A stretch of 64,000 nt of DNA from Patescibacteria group bacterium. GTDB lineage: Bacteria; Patescibacteriota; Minisyncoccia; Phycocordibacterales; JACZSL01. Within the stretch, counting starts at the first letter, position 1; every line of letters begins with the position of its first letter. Location of the stretch: the NCBI GenBank assembly GCA_022574205.1, contig JACZSL010000002.1:11965-75964 (forward strand), written 5' to 3'. Under the pieces are notes generated by a model. That model saw only the letters and a list, made by a program, of their open reading frames with translations. It searched no databases and had not been told where the DNA came from. Shown piece by piece: positions 21,294 through 64,000 of this stretch. The position numbers were made by a program, and so were the translations under genes.

Positions 21294-21420
21294 CCCGATA
21301 GTAATAGGACACGGACACAGACTGTCCTTGCCACAAGATTAAACTTTCATTAATGTTCGACTTTTCCATTATATTTTGTCTCAGTGTCCGTCCTGCTTGC
21401 CGGCAGGCAGGGATTACTAT
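21294..21420 (-). repeat. ~130-bp repeated leader/MITE-like element, copy 1 (ends exactly at the NUDIX start codon)
   Basis: ~80% identical to 53081-53210; terminal inverted repeats cccgatagtaat/attactat(aagg); internal GC palindrome cctgcttgccggcaggcagg. Confidence 0.6.
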
Positions 21421-21431
21421 AAGGACTCATG

Positions 21432-21513
21432 TGCCCAGGGGGGGACTTGAACCCCCAAGCCGTGAAGCATACGCCCCTCAAGCGTACGAGTTTACCAATT
21501 TCTCCACCTGGGC
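21432..21513 (-). tRNA. tRNA-Leu (GAG), long variable arm
   Basis: Reverse complement GCCCAGGTGGAGAAATTGGTAAAC..TACGCTTGAGGGGCGTA..GGTTCAAGTCCCCCCCTGGGCA. Confidence 0.8.
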
Positions 21514-22188
21514 TTACAGTGTTTTATTTACGACACTTAATGCTTTTTCTATTTTTCTGCGTTTGCGAGATAAGCATATCACGTTTTTGTCGTAATACAT
21601 TTTTTTTAGGATCTTTAGTGATTCACTTTTTGCAAACCTTAATTGGTGTACGTTACCAAATTTGGAGCACACAATATGCCCTTTCACACTGATTAATTTC
21701 CCGAGCTCCTCTTTTATCCAATCTATGTGTTTTCTACTAGCAGAAGCAAAAACAACGTAAAACATGTAGCTTTTTTTCCAACGAGGATCCCAATACGAAT
21801 AAAAACACCCATCCCCATCATGATGACCTCTAAGAAAATCAAAGAAGTATGTTAGTGGAATTTCTATCTTGCCTATAATTTTTGTCTTGGCTGGACTAAA
21901 GCCAGCACCCAAAAGAAATTTGTACAACTTGACACTACCAAACTGAATTCTTGTGGTTCTTTTGCCAGTATGGGTAGAAATTTTGGTTCCAATTTTAACA
22001 TTAATGTTAAGACAACGCATAAAATTTAAAAGTTGTTCTTTGTCCTTGGAGGTTAAGTCAAAATGTCTTCCATCTATCGAGAGACTTCCATCAGTAGCTA
22101 AAAGCCCCATTGCATATGCAAAATTTGGACTCCACTTGGTACTTATTTCACTATTTCTCTTCACATTAGTCGTGCAATAATCATACAA
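21514..22188 (-). CDS. LAGLIDADG homing endonuclease (two-motif, single chain); its stop directly abuts the tRNA-Leu 5' end
   Basis: LLATDGSLSIDG and FLRGHHDGDGCF LAGLIDADG motifs. Confidence 0.75.
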   Translation of the reverse strand: MYDYCTTNVKRNSEISTKWSPNFAYAMGLLATDGSLSIDGRHFDLTSKDKEQLLNFMRCLNINVKIGTKISTHTGKRTTRIQFGSVKLYKFLLGAGFSPAKTKIIGKIEIPLTYFFDFLRGHHDGDGCFYSYWDPRWKKSYMFYVVFASASRKHIDWIKEELGKLISVKGHIVCSKFGNVHQLRFAKSESLKILKKMYYDKNVICLSRKRRKIEKALSVVNKTL

Positions 22189-23004: not shown

Positions 23005-23044
23005 CACTTCGACTCCCGCCTGCCGGCGGGCAGGAATCGAAGTG
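23005..23044. repeat. GC-rich 40-nt hairpin of the CCTGCCGGC(R)GGCAGG palindrome family (possible terminator of the rluA-like gene / start of the rplS leader)
   Basis: cacttcgactcccgcctgccggcgggcaggaatcgaagtg: 8-bp outer stem plus GC-rich inner stem. Confidence 0.5.
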
Positions 23045-29784: not shown

Positions 29785-29817
29785 ACGTGTACACGTCAGG
29801 ACGTACGTCCTGACGTG
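29785..29817. repeat. Perfect palindromes ACGTGTACACGT and CACGTCAGGACGTACGTCCTGACGTG (copy A)
   Basis: Sequence agctacgtgtacacgtcaggacgtacgtcctgacgtggg, between divergent tRNA-Ser and the ORF at 29886; the 26-bp core recurs at 36361. Confidence 0.6.
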
Positions 29818-29885
29818 GGTGTCTTGCGTCACTAATCACACGTTTTTGTTCCGCAAAATTAACTCATTGCGCTATACTTATAGTA

Positions 29886-30384: not shown

Positions 30385-30457
30385 GCCCTCATAGTTTAAT
30401 GGATAGAATACATCTTTGCGGAAGATGTGATCGAGGTTCGATTCCTCGTGAGGGCAC
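30385..30457 (+). tRNA. tRNA-Arg (GCG)
   Basis: GCCCTCATAGTTTAATGGATAGAATACATCTTTGCGGAAGATGTGATCGAGGTTCGATTCCTCGTGAGGGCA; anticodon loop TTGCGGA. Confidence 0.65.
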
Positions 30458-30614
30458 AAAATAAGAAACTGGCGCGCCGAAGGTGCGCTAGTTTCTTGTT
30501 TGCCCGGTAGGAATCGAACGACGGAGCCCCGCCACTGGTCCGAGGGGCAAGTCGTGTCCCGCGGCACTTAGTGAACGAGGAGCATGCGACGAAGTGAACT
30601 TAGTGACCGTCAGG

Positions 30615-30634
30615 ACGATTCCTCGTGAGGGCAC
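30615..30634 (+). repeat. Exact 20-bp direct repeat of the tRNA-Arg(GCG) 3' end (att-site-like scar), 177 bp downstream of the tRNA
   Basis: cgattcctcgtgagggcaca occurs at 30438-30457 and 30615-30634. Confidence 0.7.
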
Positions 30635-30637
30635 ATA

Positions 30638-30666
30638 TGAAAAAAGCCAGCTTTGTGCTGGTTTTT
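30638..30666. terminator. Bidirectional intrinsic terminator
   Basis: aaaaaagccagctttgtgctggttttttt. Confidence 0.6.
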
Positions 30667-36029: not shown

Positions 36030-36030
36030 G

Positions 36031-36103
36031 TCCGCCCAGCAGGACTCGAACCTGCGACCTTGAAGTTAAAAGCTTCCTGCTCTACCAGCTGAGCTATGGG
36101 CGG
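36031..36103 (-). tRNA. tRNA-Lys (TTT)
   Basis: Reverse complement CCGCCCATAGCTCAGCTGGTAGAGCAGGAAGCTTTTAACTTCAAGGTCGCAGGTTCGAGTCCTGCTGGGCGGA; anticodon loop CTTTTAA; unusual C1:G72. Confidence 0.75.
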
Positions 36104-36285
36104 ATGTATTATTATCGCACGAGCTACCAAGACAGCTATGGGCGGATGTATTATTATCGCACGAGCTACCAAGACAGCTATGGGCGGATGTATTATTATC
36201 GCACGAGCTACCAAGACAGCTATGGGCGGATGTATTGTTCGACTGTTATTTACCAAAACAGCTATGGGCGGTTGCCTTTATATAG
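36094..36285. repeat. 42-bp tandem direct repeat array: 3 identical copies, a diverged 4th and a partial 5th; each copy begins with the first 10 nt of tRNA-Lys
   Basis: Unit ctatgggcggatgtattattatcgcacgagctaccaagacag at 36094, 36136, 36178, 36220 (diverged), 36262 (partial); each unit carries a TAATAAT -10-like box. Confidence 0.85.
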
Positions 36286-36355: not shown

Positions 36356-36391
36356 ACCCACGTCAGGACGTACGTCCTGACGTGGGTTTCG
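36356..36391 (-). terminator. 36-bp perfect palindrome (copy B of the CACGTCAGGACGTACGTCCTGACGTG element), likely intrinsic terminator of the holA-like gene
   Basis: aaacccacgtcaggacgtacgtcctgacgtgggttt; on the minus strand the hairpin is followed by TTTT. Confidence 0.55.
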
Positions 36392-36459
36392 TGAACTTTG
36401 CGCGCCCTCCCATAACTCAAGCAGCTGTTTGAGTTATGGAATATTTTAAAAAAATACTT

Positions 36460-46378: not shown

Positions 46379-48580
46379 ATGCGACGTAATAGAAAGCGGG
46401 TTCGTGCTCACATAAATGGCTTTTTTAGGAATATTCTCCTTTTGGGTTTTGTTGGGGGTTTTTTTCTTGCTGGAGCGTTTCTTTTGTGGGCATCTACTTT
46501 AAAAATCCCAGATCTTGACAGTCTCTACCAAAGAAAGGTCGCCCAATCTACTAAAATTTACGACCGCACTGGGGAAATTCTACTTTTTAATGTTCATGAA
46601 GATATACGTAGGACAATTGTTCCTTTAAGTGATATTTCTAGAAACATAGAAAATGCGACTATCGCGATAGAGGATGTAGAGTTTTATGAGCACCGGGGTG
46701 TTAAACCGCAAGCAATTCTTCGTGCGTTATTTGTAAATATTGGTGAGTTGAATTTTAGTCAAGGTGGATCAACGATTACACAGCAAGTGGTAAAAAATTC
46801 GATTTTAACAAAAGAGAAAAAACTTTCCCGTAAACTAAAAGAGTTGATTTTAGCTCTTAAGGTTGAACAGCAGTTAACAAAAGAACAAATTTTAGAGCTA
46901 TATCTAAATGAAACACCTTATGGTGGAAGTGTGTATGGTGTTGAAGAAGCAAGTAAGACCTTTTTTGGGAAATCATCAAGTGATGTAACGCTTGCAGAAG
47001 CTGCGTTTCTTGCGGCACTCCCAAAAGCTCCAACATTTTATTCTCCATACGGAAATAATCGCGACGAATTGGAGGAGCGTAAAAATCTTGTGCTTGAGAG
47101 AATGTTTAATAACGGCTTTATTTCGCGTGGAGAATATGAATTTGCACAAAAAGAGCAGATAGAATTTCAAGGGCAGGCTGTTTTAGGAATAAGAGCTCCA
47201 CATTTTGTTATGTTTGTACGTGAGTATTTATCTAGGACTTATGGCGATCGTGCTATTGAAGAGCGTGGTTTTAGGGTTATAACAACGTTAGATTATGAAC
47301 TACAAGAAAAGGGTGAGGAGATTGTTGCGCGCTTTGTTGAAACAAACGTTGAAAACTTCAACGCGTCGAATGCTGGTCTCGTTGCGGTTGATCCAAAAAC
47401 TGGACAGATTCTAGTAATGGTTGGGTCTAGAAACTATTTTGATGAAGAGATTGATGGAAATTTTAATATAACACTTGCAGAACGTCAGCCAGGATCAGCG
47501 TTTAAGCCATTCGTTTACGCAACAGCGTTATTTAAAGGATACACAACAGAAACTGTAGTGTTTGATACACAAACACAATTCTCAACACTATGTGACTTTG
47601 ATGACTTAGAAAATGAAAATACGGAGTGTTATTCGCCTAGAAATTATGATAATATATTTCGCGGTCCGGTAACTTTTCGTGATGCGCTTGCACAATCCAT
47701 TAATGTACCGTCTGTAAAAGTGTTGTATCTTGCTGGGATACAAGATTCCATTAAAACAGCGAGTAGTATGGGTATTACAACATTAAGTGATGCAGGTCGG
47801 TATGGGCTAACTCTTGTGCTTGGTGGTGGTGAAGTAACTCTTCTTGATATGACAAGTGCATATGGTGTTTTTGCGAATGAAGGGAAAAGAAATCCATATG
47901 TAGGTATTCTTCGTATAGAGGATAGTAATGGTGTTGTTGTTGAAGAATTTTCACACAACCCAATAAAAGTGATATCAGAGGAAGTTGCTCTTCGGATATC
48001 TGATATTCTTTCGGATAATAAAGCGCGTACACCGGCATTTGGTAGTCGATCGGATTTATATTTTCCAGGATACGATGTTGCTGTTAAAACAGGGACAACA
48101 AATGATTCTCGCGACGCATGGATTATTGGATATTCTCCAACAATTGCTGTTGGAGCGTGGGCTGGAAATAACGACAATTCACCTATGGAAAAGAAAGTTG
48201 CTGGGTTTATTATTGCGCCATTGTGGAATGCTTTTATGCAGGAAATATTAGTTAAGGTACCAAACGAGCGTTTTAGATCTGCACCACAGGAATATAATGA
48301 AAATATAAAACCAGTATTACGGGGTGTGTGGGAAGGTGGAGATTTATACTTTATAGATGATAGAACTGGAAGTCCTGCGACAGAAAACACACCTATGGAG
48401 AACATGAAAGAAATTATAGTAAAGAATGTACACTCAATACTCTACTGGGTAGATAAAAATGACCCTCGTGGGGAGAAACCAGATAGCCCAGAAGATAGTT
48501 CACAGTTTAATGCTTGGGAGTATGGGGTTTTTGAGTGGAAAAAAACCAACGGTATTGTTGATGATGTATTACCTTATTAG
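46379..48580 (+). CDS. Class A penicillin-binding protein (glycosyltransferase plus transpeptidase)
   Basis: GT51 motifs IEDVEFYEHRGV and GGSTITQQVVKN; transpeptidase SAFKPFVYATAL, SxN, KTGT. Confidence 0.9.
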   Translation: MRRNRKRVRAHINGFFRNILLLGFVGGFFLAGAFLLWASTLKIPDLDSLYQRKVAQSTKIYDRTGEILLFNVHEDIRRTIVPLSDISRNIENATIAIEDVEFYEHRGVKPQAILRALFVNIGELNFSQGGSTITQQVVKNSILTKEKKLSRKLKELILALKVEQQLTKEQILELYLNETPYGGSVYGVEEASKTFFGKSSSDVTLAEAAFLAALPKAPTFYSPYGNNRDELEERKNLVLERMFNNGFISRGEYEFAQKEQIEFQGQAVLGIRAPHFVMFVREYLSRTYGDRAIEERGFRVITTLDYELQEKGEEIVARFVETNVENFNASNAGLVAVDPKTGQILVMVGSRNYFDEEIDGNFNITLAERQPGSAFKPFVYATALFKGYTTETVVFDTQTQFSTLCDFDDLENENTECYSPRNYDNIFRGPVTFRDALAQSINVPSVKVLYLAGIQDSIKTASSMGITTLSDAGRYGLTLVLGGGEVTLLDMTSAYGVFANEGKRNPYVGILRIEDSNGVVVEEFSHNPIKVISEEVALRISDILSDNKARTPAFGSRSDLYFPGYDVAVKTGTTNDSRDAWIIGYSPTIAVGAWAGNNDNSPMEKKVAGFIIAPLWNAFMQEILVKVPNERFRSAPQEYNENIKPVLRGVWEGGDLYFIDDRTGSPATENTPMENMKEIIVKNVHSILYWVDKNDPRGEKPDSPEDSSQFNAWEYGVFEWKKTNGIVDDVLPY

Positions 48581-48587
48581 TATTGTT

Positions 48588-48857
48588 CTATAAAACATTT
48601 TTAATAAATTCCTTTTTTTTGCTAAGTTTTTTGTTTAATCGTCTGATAATGTCTTGTTTATTTAGATATATTTCGTGTTTTAGTGTTGGATGGGTTTTAA
48701 TATAAAGAATGTTTCTAGTTATTGAAATGTTTTTAGTAGAAATTGCATTGTTGAATATTTCTTTTATAACTTCACAAAAGGCCTCTTTAATAATTTTATC
48801 CCTTGGTGTTGCGAGTGTGTACTTGCGTAAAATATCCTTAATTTTACTTAAGCCCAT
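48588..48857 (-). CDS. DUF721/DciA-like small protein downstream of dnaN
   Basis: Position after dnaA-dnaN; basic C-terminus; size typical of DUF721. Confidence 0.4.
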   Translation of the reverse strand: MGLSKIKDILRKYTLATPRDKIIKEAFCEVIKEIFNNAISTKNISITRNILYIKTHPTLKHEIYLNKQDIIRRLNKKLSKKKEFIKNVL

Positions 48858-48858
48858 A

Positions 48859-49962
48859 TTACTTATTCATTGGCATAACAAGATAAAGGTATGATGGGTC
48901 GCTCACACCTTCCATAACCATTGGTTTCCCAAGGCCACTAAAAGACAGGGAAACACTATCTGATGGGATAATTTGTAGTGCGTCAGTAATATATCGGTGA
49001 TTAAAGTTAATATCTAAATCTTCTCCATCAACAGCTGCTTGGAGTTGTTCTGTTGTCTCTCCTACATCTTGATTACTTGAAGTTAGGGTACATTTTCTTT
49101 GTTTTGATGAAATATGAAAACAAACCTGATTAAACTTATCAGAGAAAATATTTATTTTCTTTAAACTATTAATAAGGTCTTGTTTTAGTGTAATAATTTT
49201 TGTTGTGACTTTTTTAGGAATAATTTGGTGGTAATCTGGGTAAATACCGTCAATTAGCCTTGATGTTATGTATATGTTGTCAGATGAGAAAGATATTTGA
49301 TTTTTAGTAAAAGTTACTATAACTTCTCCAATATTTGAGTGTTCTAGTGCTTTTATTATTTCTGGTATGTTTTTAATAGGTATAATAAGTGGGTTAAAAT
49401 TTGGAACATTTTTATTTATTATAACTTTCTCAGATAGACGGAATGAGTCTGTTGCTGTAAATGTTATTTTTTTGTTTTGTATAGATATATATACACTTGC
49501 AAGTTCTGGTTTAATTGATAAGTTGGATGAACTAAACCATACTGAATTTAGGCCATTAAGAAAATCCTTAATGTCTATTGTAAATGAATTATTACTTTTA
49601 ACTTTAGGTAGTAATGGAAAATCTTCATGTGGTAGTGATTTTATAAGTGTTGAACTTGTGTGTGTTATTATTGAAAGGTTGTCATTTTTACTTAATAATT
49701 TAATTGATACACCATTATATATAGAATTTATAACGTTATAAAAAACTGAACCAGAAACTGCCATTATACCATCTTCTATTATTTTTGCTGGAATATTAAC
49801 TTCAACACCTAAATCAAGATTTGTTGCTTTTAGTTTTAAACTTGATCCTTTTGCCTCTATTAAAATACATCCAAGAACAGGAAGATTAAGATTTTTTCCA
49901 ACAGCCCTTTCAACAATATAAATATTATCAACGAGATTTTCTTTTAAACATTCAACCTTCAT
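48859..49962 (-). CDS. dnaN: DNA polymerase III beta sliding clamp
   Basis: MKVECLKENLVDNIYIVERAVGKNLNLPVLGCILIEA... three-domain clamp. Confidence 0.9.
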   Translation of the reverse strand: MKVECLKENLVDNIYIVERAVGKNLNLPVLGCILIEAKGSSLKLKATNLDLGVEVNIPAKIIEDGIMAVSGSVFYNVINSIYNGVSIKLLSKNDNLSIITHTSSTLIKSLPHEDFPLLPKVKSNNSFTIDIKDFLNGLNSVWFSSSNLSIKPELASVYISIQNKKITFTATDSFRLSEKVIINKNVPNFNPLIIPIKNIPEIIKALEHSNIGEVIVTFTKNQISFSSDNIYITSRLIDGIYPDYHQIIPKKVTTKIITLKQDLINSLKKINIFSDKFNQVCFHISSKQRKCTLTSSNQDVGETTEQLQAAVDGEDLDINFNHRYITDALQIIPSDSVSLSFSGLGKPMVMEGVSDPSYLYLVMPMNK

Positions 49963-50179
49963 ATTCTATATATTATTTATTTTTACTATTAACACTGTGT
50001 ATATGTATAAAACTTAATAAACCCTTATAATAAGCTCTTTTCTAAAACATCTACATAAACAACATGTGATTAACTTATAATAATATGTGGACTATTTTAC
50101 ATTAAATAAACTAAAATACATTTTTACACCAACTTATTAACAAATCATCCACATAATAAAATACGTTTTCCACAAATTG
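49963..50179. promoter_or_regulatory. Candidate oriC segment / DnaA-box cluster in the AT-rich dnaA-dnaN intergenic region
   Basis: tcatccaca (50145-50153) and ttttccaca (50166-50174) are each 8/9 to TTATCCACA; tgtggacta (50087-50095); region about 80% AT. Confidence 0.4.
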
Positions 50180-51538
50180 TTATTTTAGAATCATACGAAT
50201 TTGATTTATTTCCTGTTCAAGAACACTATCAACTTTTAAATTTTTTCTAATTTTTTCACATGAATGTATAACTGTTGTGTGATCTCTACCACCAAGTTTT
50301 TGTCCAATACTCGGATAAGAAATACCAAAATCTTCCCGTAAAATATACATAATAAGCTGACGAGGCTTAACTATTTCTTTCCGTCGAGTTTTCTCATAAA
50401 TATTTTGCTCAGTAATATCATAAAATTCCGCAATTTTCCTCACAACTTCCTTTGCAGATATAAGTTTTTTTGTTCTTGTATTATTTTTTATTAAGCTTTC
50501 AATTTCAGGAAGTGTTAGGGTTGTATCTTGAAGTTGAGATTGACATATAATAGTGTTAAGTGCTCCCTCAAGATCACGAATATTCCCTTGTATTGTTGAA
50601 GCAAGGTAGTCAATAATTTTATCTGAAAGTAATAAATTATTATGTAGTGCTTTAGATTTTAAAATAGCAACACGCGAGTCGTGATCTGGGGCTGGTATAT
50701 CAACAATCATACCAGCGCCAAAACGGCTCTTCAGACGACTTTCAAGATCTGGGATATAGTTTGGGTGCTTATCTGATGTTAATATAATCTGTTTATTATT
50801 ATCATAAAGAGCATTAAATAGATGAAAAAGCTCCTCCTGAGTCTTTTCCTTCTTAGAAAGAAATTGAATATCGTCCATAATAAGAACATCATACTGACGA
50901 TACTTCTCTTTAAACACATTAACTTTAGCCTCCTGAACAGCGTTCACATAATCAACAGTAAATTTCTCACTCGTTAAATAGAATACTTTTCTAGCAGGAT
51001 TTATTTTCTTTAATTGATTACCAACAGCTTGTGCAAGGTGTGTTTTTCCATGACCTGTTGGACTATAAAGAAAAAGAGGATTATATGCAATTCCAGGTTT
51101 TTTAATAACAGCCTGGCTTGCTGCATGAGCCAACTCATTAAATGAACCAACAACAAAATTTTCAAATGTATATCGTGGATTTAAATTATCATTTTTATTG
51201 ATATAAAAATCCTTAAGTGGTAACTCATATGTTGGTGTTGGTTTTTTAGCCACACCACCAACCAACTCCTTTATCACACTATTATCACGATTTTTTACAA
51301 TATTATATTCAAGTCCACGAACCCCGTCAGAAAAACCCCTAAGTGTTTTAAGAATAAATCTATGATATTTTTGCACCATCCAATCCTTAACAAACTGGTT
51401 CGGCACACCAAGGAAAATAACCCCACTCTCCTGTTTAATAATGTACGTATCCTTAAACCATGTGCTGAAATTTGCTCGTGATATATTAAGTTCAATATCA
51501 ACAAGTGTATTTTCCCATAATTGTTTATTACCAAGCAT
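50180..51538 (-). CDS. dnaA: Chromosomal replication initiator DnaA
   Basis: LFLYSPTGHGKTHLAQAVGN (Walker A); C-terminal HTH ...GGRDHTTVIHSCEKI... Confidence 0.95.
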   Translation of the reverse strand: MLGNKQLWENTLVDIELNISRANFSTWFKDTYIIKQESGVIFLGVPNQFVKDWMVQKYHRFILKTLRGFSDGVRGLEYNIVKNRDNSVIKELVGGVAKKPTPTYELPLKDFYINKNDNLNPRYTFENFVVGSFNELAHAASQAVIKKPGIAYNPLFLYSPTGHGKTHLAQAVGNQLKKINPARKVFYLTSEKFTVDYVNAVQEAKVNVFKEKYRQYDVLIMDDIQFLSKKEKTQEELFHLFNALYDNNKQIILTSDKHPNYIPDLESRLKSRFGAGMIVDIPAPDHDSRVAILKSKALHNNLLLSDKIIDYLASTIQGNIRDLEGALNTIICQSQLQDTTLTLPEIESLIKNNTRTKKLISAKEVVRKIAEFYDITEQNIYEKTRRKEIVKPRQLIMYILREDFGISYPSIGQKLGGRDHTTVIHSCEKIRKNLKVDSVLEQEINQIRMILK

Positions 51539-51723
51539 GTGGTGAAATGTAATGCTAATAAGCCGAATAAGATATGTATGATTATCAAATTATACTCTTC
51601 TCGTGGAAAAGTAAATCTTGAAAAACTTGAATAAGTATGTTAATAAAATGTGCATAAGACATAATTGTTACTGTACTAAATAAAAGTAGTCAGGCTTTAA
51701 TTATTCTGTTATAATGTTAAATA
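51539..51723. promoter_or_regulatory. Divergent dnaA/rpmH promoter region with DnaA-box-like sites (second oriC candidate)
   Basis: tgtgcataa (51649-51657) is 8/9 to TGTGGATAA; cgtggaaaa; AT-rich. Confidence 0.35.
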
Positions 51724-51858
51724 ATGTCTATTACATACAAACCAAAGAGGCGAAAAAGGGCTAAAACTCACGGTTTTTTAAGCCGCAAAAAGACACCAGG
51801 TGGACGTAAAGTCCTTAAAAGACGAGCACGAAAAGGAAGAACGCACTTGTCTGTGTAG
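51724..51858 (+). CDS. rpmH: Ribosomal protein L34 (44 aa; below the ORF-track cutoff)
   Basis: Manual translation [44 protein letters not shown]. Confidence 0.9.
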
Positions 51859-51890
51859 AATTATGCCTGTGTATAACACACTCTAGAATT

Positions 51891-52220
51891 GTGAATAAAA
51901 GAAAACCGGTAACTAGAAAAATTTTCGACCGCATTTTAAAAACCGGAAAAACATACCATCAACCACTATTTAGTTTTCACACACTACACACACTTGAAAA
52001 TGTATACAGGATTGTGTGTGTTGTACCAAAGAGCACGGAAAAGTCTGCTGTTGTTAGAAACAAGTTACGACGTCGTTGTTACTATGCGATTTATAAACTA
52101 CTCAACAATAATAAGTATTTTTTAGCAATCCTATTTATTAAATCAGGCGCGAAACGCCTTCCATATAAATTATTTGAGGAAAAGATAGCCGTTCTTCTCA
52201 AAAGATCCGGCATACTGTAA
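51891..52220 (+). CDS. rnpA: RNase P protein component
   Basis: Basic protein ...VVRNKLRRRCYYAIYKLL...; canonical rpmH-rnpA order. Confidence 0.85.
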   Translation: MNKRKPVTRKIFDRILKTGKTYHQPLFSFHTLHTLENVYRIVCVVPKSTEKSAVVRNKLRRRCYYAIYKLLNNNKYFLAILFIKSGAKRLPYKLFEEKIAVLLKRSGIL

Positions 52221-53080: not shown

Positions 53081-53210
53081 CCCGATAGTAATCCCTGCCT
53101 GCCGGCAGGCAGGATGGACACTAAGACAATATATTATGAGAAAGTCGATTATCAAAAAAACTTAATCTTGTGGCAAGGATAATTTCAGTTCGTGTCCTAT
53201 TACTATCGGG
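53081..53210 (+). repeat. ~130-bp repeated leader/MITE-like element, copy 2, with perfect 12-bp terminal inverted repeats and a perfect 20-bp GC palindrome; ends exactly at the jag start codon
   Basis: cccgatagtaat ... attactatcggg|ATG; cctgcctgccggcaggcagg at 53094-53113; ~80% identical to the 21294-21420 copy in the same orientation relative to the downstream gene. Confidence 0.65.

Positions 53211-63695: not shown

Positions 63696-64000
<305 letters not shown>

Follow-up and report, generated by a model that had tools for sequence, protein, structure and literature searches.

Anatomy of the array

Why is the 5' end of a tRNA gene repeated in tandem directly upstream of the gene that it copies? 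This question is raised by the tRNA-Lys(UUU) gene of a Patescibacteria bacterium, which lies in a 64,000-nucleotide stretch of DNA that was analyzed as a whole and is called the window here. The host replicon is the chromosome of an uncultured CPR bacterium, and neither a phage nor an organelle; neighboring genes in the window are polA, holA, tsaE, ruvA/B, a Mur ligase gene, SpoU, and DoxX. Read on the tRNA strand, the locus runs from the holA stop through a 30-bp palindrome and a hairpin to a native promoter box with its leader, then through one diverged unit (D) and three identical units (M-M-M) to tRNA-Lys(UUU), a single base, and the ATG of a LAGLIDADG_3 open reading frame (Table 1).

Table 1. 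Coordinates of the features at the tRNA-Lys(UUU) locus, in window positions
Feature	Position	Strand	Basis
tRNA-Lys(UUU), intact gene	36030..36103	-	ARAGORN; Rfam tRNA model, 68.4 bits
Three identical 42-bp M units	36104-36145, 36146-36187, 36188-36229 (36104..36229)	-	sequence, repeat finding, 42-mer count
Extended -10-like box TGCGATAAT (TGcGATAAT) of the proximal M unit	36111..36119	-	sequence and -10 scoring; consensus match only
Diverged distal unit D	36230..36271	-	sequence
Native promoter and short leader: TGTTACTAT (extended -10), then ATAAAGGCAA	36272..36290	-	-10 scoring; homology to array-free relatives
Perfect 30-bp palindrome	36357-36386		between holA stop and tRNA-Lys promoter
Terminator-like hairpin	36410-36439		between holA stop and tRNA-Lys promoter
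LAGLIDADG_3 ORF, 273 aa	35208..36029	-	Pfam 1.4e-10; 965 homologues

Tandem Repeats Finder, run on the window, reported a period of 42 with 3.5 copies and 100% matches at 36092-36236, together with an additional row of period 84 that reached 36271. The exact 42-mer starts at 36094, 36136, and 36178 and occurred 0 times in 100 shuffles, while the 12-mer AGCTATGGGCGG is present five times in the window at 42-bp spacing, against 0.14 expected. On the tRNA strand, an M unit reads CCGCCCATAGCT GTCT TGGTAG CTCG TGCGATAAT AATACAT and the distal unit reads CCGCCCATAGCT GTTT TGGTAA ATAACAGTCGAACAATACAT; counted from these sequences, D is identical to M at 30 of 42 positions (71%). D resembles the units of other lineages (e.g., GTTTTGGTAGATAACAG in L008), and it is without the TGcGATAAT box that the three M units carry. 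The array thus consists of head-to-tail copies with no spacers, three of them exact 42-mers and one at 71%.

Compared with tRNA-Lys, a unit matches perfectly at positions 1-12 (CCGCCCATAGCT), reads GTCT (M) or GTTT (D) instead of CAGC at positions 13-16, and matches again with TGGTAG at 17-22, for a total of 18 of 22 positions. From this alignment the repeats appear to be templated on the first 22 nt of tRNA-Lys(UUU), and not on its first 10 nt as an earlier note on this DNA had proposed. That note had also counted three identical units, a diverged fourth, and a truncated fifth. The first four are borne out, but in the register used here the "fifth" is the first 10-12 nt of the diverged fourth unit. 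Its conclusion that this is not a CRISPR array stands because the units are contiguous and what might be taken for spacers is identical in three of them. The open reading frames that span the array are mere translations of the repeat, and coding potential was rejected on these grounds.

Array variants within the species

Contigs of the same species were found through exactly identical LAGLIDADG, HolA, or DoxX proteins, and they do not all carry the same array. The window has D-M-M-M, L001 has D-M-M, and L100 and L103 have M-M; in L003 the order is D*-M, where D* is an M/D chimeric unit. In some assemblies, then, D is replaced by an M unit or is chimeric. The array of L002 reads D-M...M-M on a scaffold with an N gap inside it, and other contigs break within the array. 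L005 has no unit at all, although it shares tRNA-Lys, the DoxX flank, and an identical LAGLIDADG protein with the others. Its upstream 69 nt (1-69) are unrelated, contain their own TGgTATATT box, and have no match in the window or in any fetched locus, and L005 may be an alternative allele or an assembly chimera.

Across six assemblies with an identical LAGLIDADG protein, the number of M units ranges from 0 to at least three, with M/D chimeras in addition, though these short-read counts may include collapse. Identical 42-bp units are collapsible and part of the variation is possibly technical; the counts are soft because three such units approach the limit of a k=141 assembly. Differences in composition, such as M-M against D*-M, are not easily produced by collapse and are harder to explain as artefacts. 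The earlier note had raised replication slippage as a source of the array, and slippage or unequal recombination fits the differing copy number and unit composition, including a chimeric unit, among same-species assemblies.

Could the repeat have been made or expanded by an assembler? The assemblies disagree on copy number, an N gap interrupts one scaffold within the array, and several contigs also stop there. However, the array was seen in six independent metagenome assemblies, from different samples and assemblers, with at least two units and the same junctions, and it is therefore no artefact of one assembly; the same architecture also recurs at about 70 unrelated loci. We consider an assembly origin extremely unlikely.

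The tRNA-Lys and LAGLIDADG module

The ATG of the LAGLIDADG_3 gene begins 1 nt past the 3' end of tRNA-Lys(UUU), where GGGCGGAC is followed by ATGAAT; the NCBI record of the protein is a hypothetical protein of "Patescibacteria group bacterium". From this arrangement, the gene would be co-transcribed with whatever drives the tRNA, and once the 3' end of the tRNA is processed, the LAGLIDADG mRNA would be nearly leaderless. The junction between tRNA and ATG (1-4 nt) is kept in six other Paceibacterota/Kaiserbacteria species (L112-L137) at 56-65% protein identity and with varying flanks, so that tRNA-Lys(UUU) with its LAGLIDADG gene looks like a conserved, long-lived module.

These relatives also indicate where the array was placed. 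In array-free species the native promoter and leader abut the real tRNA, e.g., GGGTATAATAAAGGCAG directly followed by CCGCCC in L112, and likewise in L118, L128, and L136. In the window, D starts directly after the native promoter and leader, at the exact point where the real tRNA starts in those species. The array has thus been inserted between the promoter and the gene. No pseudo-copy (the re-copied tRNA start) is present in five of the seven species with the module, the window counted, so the unit can be dispensed with, and the endonuclease is not its cause. Units of this kind also stand at dozens of tRNA-Lys(CUU) loci with no adjacent LAGLIDADG gene. Consequently, the endonuclease-induced repair that had been suggested for this array was rejected as a general cause.

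A second LAGLIDADG open reading frame in the window (21514-22188, minus strand) ends exactly at the 5' end of tRNA-Leu(GAG) (21431-21513). Its homologues, at 31-42% identity, lie in inter-tRNA spacers of L019, L029, L055, and L082 (from Lys to Leu(TAG), or from Cys to Leu(TAA)), and by their positions homing endonuclease genes appear to colonize tRNA clusters in these genomes.

Related units in other Patescibacteria

Related pseudo-5' units stand at about 70 other Patescibacteria loci. We used two scans. The genome scan looked for a tRNA 12-mer repeated at 20-40 nt and left positions 13-22 free; it revealed the same architecture upstream of tRNA-Lys(CUU) in five other MAGs (Patescibacteria, Paceibacterota, and Saccharibacteria), all with GTYY at positions 13-16. 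The metagenome scan used the pattern CCCATAGCTGTYTTGGYAG, which itself enforces GTYT, and gave 82 loci; at about 70 of them, tRNA-Lys (CUU or UUU) follows on the same strand at a distance of 36-160 nt from the motif, which forms 1-9 tandem units. Taxon labels refer to the MAG matches only. One unit was present at 46 loci and two to nine at 15. Unit lengths cluster at 36-47 and 65-80 nt, and units of about 74 nt look like decayed copies of tRNA-Lys that reach about position 47.

Nearly all units (77 of 79) have the G13/T14 change and the GTYT block, which are shared by lineages as distant as Paceibacterota and Saccharibacteria. Such conservation exceeds what would be expected of a neutral passenger and counts against reading the unit as one, although only the six units from the unconstrained scan count fully because the metagenome pattern required GTYT. 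Partial duplicates with an intact D-loop (CAGY) are rare and fresh (L084 and L096 for Lys); such duplicates also exist for tRNA-Leu. In 51 of 61 loci the base at -1 of the pseudo-copy is U, like that of the tRNA, and in some loci (L087) it is a decayed unit that sits next to the tRNA.

Other tRNA genes have comparable copies. Conserved pseudo-5' copies also precede tRNA-Cys (L028, L029, L074, and L093) and tRNA-Leu(TAG) (L025 and L081), at rates of 7 of 31 for Cys, 6 of 42 for Leu(TAG), and 0 of 32 for tRNA-Leu(TAA). The Cys copies keep positions 1-16, followed by an insertion and then a remodeled hairpin with no anticodon, while the Leu(TAG) copies match the tRNA exactly as far as the anticodon loop. 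The remodeled, anticodon-less hairpins at tRNA-Cys and in some tRNA-Lys units are a hint of constraint on RNA structure, against a neutral passenger.

Copies of a tRNA end are also found on the downstream side. In one region of the window (30385-30648, plus strand), tRNA-Arg(GCG) is followed by a GC-rich insert of 158 nt and then by a 20-nt copy of its own 3' end, from the T-loop to the discriminator. Within the insert lies an anti-T-arm segment of 11 nt (AGGAATCGAAC), and the fold of the entire region has z = -7.8. Similar inserts of 65-180 nt follow tRNA-Lys, -Leu, -Cys, and -Arg in about 20 other CPR loci. They comprise a tRNA-matched anti-T segment, a GUAA hairpin or a GGGGTCGCGA...TTCGTGACC module, and then the 3' copy. 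Some related loci have such inserts and others lack them, and they have no Rfam match.

Some palindromes recur as well. The GC-rich 20-bp palindrome CCTGCCTGCCGGCAGGCAGG occurs three times in the window (21392-21411, 23015-23034, and 53094-53113). In a Saccharibacteria contig (L015), it splits the D-arm of a copy of tRNA-Lys, and the related 16-bp palindrome TCCGCCAGYTGGCGGA lies in the D-loop of pseudo-copies in L014, L096, and L116. Elsewhere in the window, G+C is low over 4 kb (0.31 at 48000-52000 vs about 0.40), and a long GGC/GGT-rich tandem repeat, possibly a Gly-rich coding repeat, lies at the window end (63700-63900).

With the covariance models of Rfam 15 at permissive E-values, the window region and 20 related loci gave tRNA matches only; antisense "Plastid-ycf2" matches were set aside as tRNA artefacts below threshold. 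Phage and plasmid records matched the body of the tRNA and not the array, the conserved 19-mer was not found in viral contigs, and a phage or plasmid origin was rejected. A literature search found no description of a pseudo-5' leader. The unit is a member of a widespread Patescibacteria tRNA-Lys leader family that the earlier note had overlooked.

Homogenization with the tRNA and between loci

In 50 of 61 non-redundant loci, the proximal pseudo-copy and the local tRNA have the same 7-base acceptor strand, against a permutation mean of 22.9 and a maximum of 33. Units may also be shared between loci. For example, they are 100% identical at the CUU and UUU loci of one metagenome or MAG in two pairs (L042/L097 and L028/L039), while in a third pair from one MAG (L013/L116) they are clearly related. 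The identity between L042 and L097 starts exactly at the first base of the pseudo-copy and continues through the tRNA; the pseudo-copy thus acts like a homology arm at the upstream end of a conversion tract. At the level of sequence patterns, the unit thus appears to be homogenized both with its tRNA and between isoacceptor loci.

Promoters and transcription

The native box TGtTACTAT lies 10 nt before the first pseudo-copy and scores 7.6 as a -10 element, vs 7.2 for the box of each M unit. Besides the proximal copy in Table 1, the TGcGATAAT box is repeated at 36153-36161 and 36195-36203, and each of the three lies 7 nt ahead of the next unit or of the tRNA +1. As a sequence match, it has the marks of a sigma-70 extended -10 element, with TG one base upstream of the hexamer, A at position 2, T at position 6, and a spacing that lies within the range of 5-9 nt before the start. 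The idea of four stacked modules, each a promoter with a tRNA start, is thus upheld in part: three M units have a correctly spaced extended -10-like box, but the fourth unit, D, has none. In the wider set, -10-like boxes lie upstream of the first pseudo-copy in 84% of loci vs 27% for background, and -10-like matches occur in the last units of other loci in 60% vs 27%. A -35 element was rejected, as was a plus-strand promoter arising from the GTCT change, with weak matches only and no conserved feature in other lineages.

By their position, the palindrome and the terminator-like hairpin presumably mark the upstream limit of the tRNA-Lys transcription unit. A near-identical perfect 30-bp palindrome (CACGTCAGGACGTACGTCCTGACGTGGG) occurs at 29790-29819, so that there are two in the window. 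Each precedes a tRNA gene of the minus strand (Ser and Lys) by about 85-110 nt, and a number of short-read contigs stop near these sites.

RNA folding

Neither the window units nor the whole precursor fold better than shuffles (z = -0.3, -0.1, and +0.39). Across loci, the pseudo-copy and the 40 nt after it show an excess of complementarity (mean z = -0.75, p = 4e-5, with 20% below -2) that is not universal, and real leaders favor the canonical tRNA fold in 10 of 46 cases vs 15 of 460 for shuffled leaders (p = 1.7e-5). According to these models, the complementarity and the bias toward the canonical fold would fit the masking of a potentially interfering decoy, and not a switch. In minimum free energy structures, the acceptor 3' strand pairs with the pseudo-strand in 36 of 46 cases. 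We discounted this preference as a generic effect of the model because shuffled leaders show it even more often. No structure common to all units was found, and the sequence past about position 30 is unalignable.

Origin and maintenance of the array

Our preferred explanation, to which we give a probability of roughly 0.55, is that the array is a copy-number-variable tandem amplification of a tRNA-Lys(UUU) pseudo-5'-end leader, produced by partial duplication, gene conversion, and slippage, and largely neutral. Through a partial duplication, the native promoter and the gene would have come to be separated by a copy of the first 22 or so nt of tRNA-Lys, or more, with a short A/T-rich tail attached. 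Homogenization with the tRNA is possible because the pseudo-copy and the real 5' end are direct repeats of 12 perfect nt, a 4-nt mismatch block, and 6 nt. The pseudo-copy may then have been converted with the tRNA and copied between the two isoacceptor loci of one genome, with the tRNA sequence as a homology arm. The apparent polymorphism in copy number would come from slipped-strand mispairing or unequal recombination between the 12+6-nt repeats, and in this species it would be the M variant with the extended -10 box that was amplified. Transcripts from the native promoter would carry a leader of 168 nt, to be removed by RNase P. Since every M unit has a TGcGATAAT box 7 nt ahead of the start that follows, additional start sites for the tRNA and the co-transcribed LAGLIDADG gene are probably provided by the three copies. 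The altered D-loop block and the frequent masking hairpins may limit both deletion and interference with tRNA folding; the GTYT block may persist since perfect 22-nt repeats delete quickly or compete for folding. On the whole, the cell seems able to do without the element, which is probably neutral for the most part or mildly costly.

The array could instead be a stack of promoters under selection, as the earlier note had it, each M copy adding an extended -10 promoter and raising transcription of tRNA-Lys(UUU) and LAGLIDADG. The TG at the right distance, A2 and T6, the constant 7 nt to each next start, and the enrichment of -10-like matches in the last units of other loci are in line with this idea, and it is only the box-bearing M that was amplified, while the box-less D is single or lost. 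However, the box is a consensus match in an A/T-rich tail with no -35 element, similar matches in other lineages lie at inconsistent distances from +1, and arrays with no good box exist (L008 and L087). Starts further upstream would also yield leaders that carry decoy 5' strands. Selection for promoters is thus possible but, in our judgment, doubtful. We hold it somewhat unlikely that the leader acts in cis as a functional RNA. Here the pseudo-5' strand, with a complementary "anti" segment in many lineages, would serve as a switch or decoy and rival the real 5' strand in pairing with the acceptor 3' strand, or would be a source of small RNA; it would regulate maturation of tRNA-Lys, and arrays would alter the dose. 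Conservation of positions 13-16 over deep lineages, an acceptor strand that co-varies with the local tRNA, and a U at -1 like that of the tRNA would all suit such an RNA. Hairpins in which the pseudo-copy forms the 5' arm are enriched, with compensatory-looking variation (CGCC/GGCG, CACC/GGTG, and CCCCC/GGGGG), the ensemble centroid of the window precursor is predicted to pair the 3' acceptor strand with a pseudo-copy, and a mirror-image, strongly structured element follows other tRNAs. Set against this are the five of seven close tRNA-Lys(UUU) relatives with no unit, the lack of an all-unit structure, window units that fold like shuffles, a thermodynamic preference for the pseudo-strand that grows with shuffled leaders, and the decayed units that adjoin the tRNA in some loci.

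A further alternative is that a homing endonuclease, integrase, or transposase repeatedly inserts a mini-element in the D-loop region of tRNA-Lys, with the 5' end restored and the old one left behind. Blocks of identity do stop within loops of the cloverleaf: in the D-loop for Lys and Cys, in the anticodon loop for Leu, and in the T-loop for one Cys copy. These tRNA clusters are crowded with LAGLIDADG and GIY-YIG genes, and the small inserts flanked by 18-20 nt copies of tRNA 3' ends resemble att duplications. Addition next to the tRNA also predicts identical proximal and diverged distal units, as seen. Nevertheless, units of 36-47 bp are too small for circle excision or transposon ends, no integrase gene lies nearby, there is no link to the LAGLIDADG gene, and phages, plasmids, and viral contigs have no match. 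In many loci, the unit tails resemble the native upstream leader, which is what tandem duplication predicts. Repeated insertion by a mobile element is therefore improbable in our view.

Comparison with known systems

The nearest precedent would be, by analogy, the E. coli tyrT-tyrV locus (rttR / tpr), where head-to-tail repeats adjoin a tRNA gene and each repeat has a copy of a terminal tRNA segment. In MG1655, which we checked, three tyrT-tyrV repeats are spaced at 178 bp and the last one overlaps the 3' end of tyrV by 19 nt, so that the last 19 nt of tRNA-Tyr are re-copied. In the window, tRNA-Lys positions 1-12 and 17-22 are present in every unit. However, the E. coli repeats copy the 3' end, lie downstream, and are longer units that encode an sRNA and a small ORF, whereas the window array copies the 5' end and lies between promoter and gene; its 42-bp units, altered D-loop block, and phylum-wide recurrence also differ. 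The array may thus be regarded as a 5'-side, short-unit, phylum-wide counterpart of tyrTV. It likewise resembles a VNTR or minisatellite that varies by slipped-strand mispairing, having identical contiguous units, a composition and an apparent copy number that differ among same-species assemblies, and a chimeric unit. Unlike a minisatellite, units of the window type are anchored to, and homogenized with, the 5' end of a functional gene and are shared by paralogous loci.

Other likenesses are more distant. Tandem duplication and random loss in animal mitochondria leaves decaying pseudo-tRNA copies beside a functional gene, as here, but those duplications are larger, occur in an organelle, and have no consistent D-loop lesion and no acceptor-stem homogenization. 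In type III toxin-antitoxin systems, the ToxI antitoxin RNA consists of tandem 34-45 nt repeats upstream of a co-transcribed protein gene. In the window, a tRNA intervenes, and the protein is a LAGLIDADG endonuclease and not a ToxN-like RNase; no ToxN/AbiQ-family gene directly follows the array. Most arrays elsewhere have no downstream protein gene and are followed by tRNA-Leu. The att sites of integrated elements (attL/attR) also consist of partial and complete copies of one tRNA gene as direct repeats (PMC9897764). These normally copy the 3' part and flank kilobases that encode an integrase (PMC9897764), whereas here the 5' part is copied, in tandem, with 20-60 bp between copies. At the window array the copies of the 5' part are 20-30 bp apart, there is no integrase, and the neighbors are holA, polA, DoxX, and SpoU.

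Implications

Two layouts recur around tRNA genes in these genomes. Upstream, a pseudo-5' end is followed by an anti-segment, a tail, and the real 5' end; downstream, in mirror image, the real 3' end is followed by an anti-T-arm, a structured insert, and a copy of the 3' end. As a tentative and rather unlikely extension, both could belong to an undescribed family of end-duplicating elements carried by Patescibacteria tRNA genes, which would be RNA switches that gate maturation or would propagate themselves via tRNA homology arms, and the window array would be an amplified member of it.

tRNA genes are usually taken as compact and static. Here, the 5' end of tRNA-Lys is re-copied, kept the same as the gene's acceptor strand, and shared between isoacceptor loci, and apparently strain-variable arrays of such copies occur across a phylum of extreme genome reduction. 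In practice, the array may serve as a marker of strains, and it is a known trap for assemblers and for the annotation of tRNAs. It is also a natural case of gene conversion that acts on a few dozen bases. It also provides material for testing decoy acceptor strands or extra promoters in tRNA maturation. If the leader is functional, it would be a new class of cis-regulatory RNA for tRNA genes.
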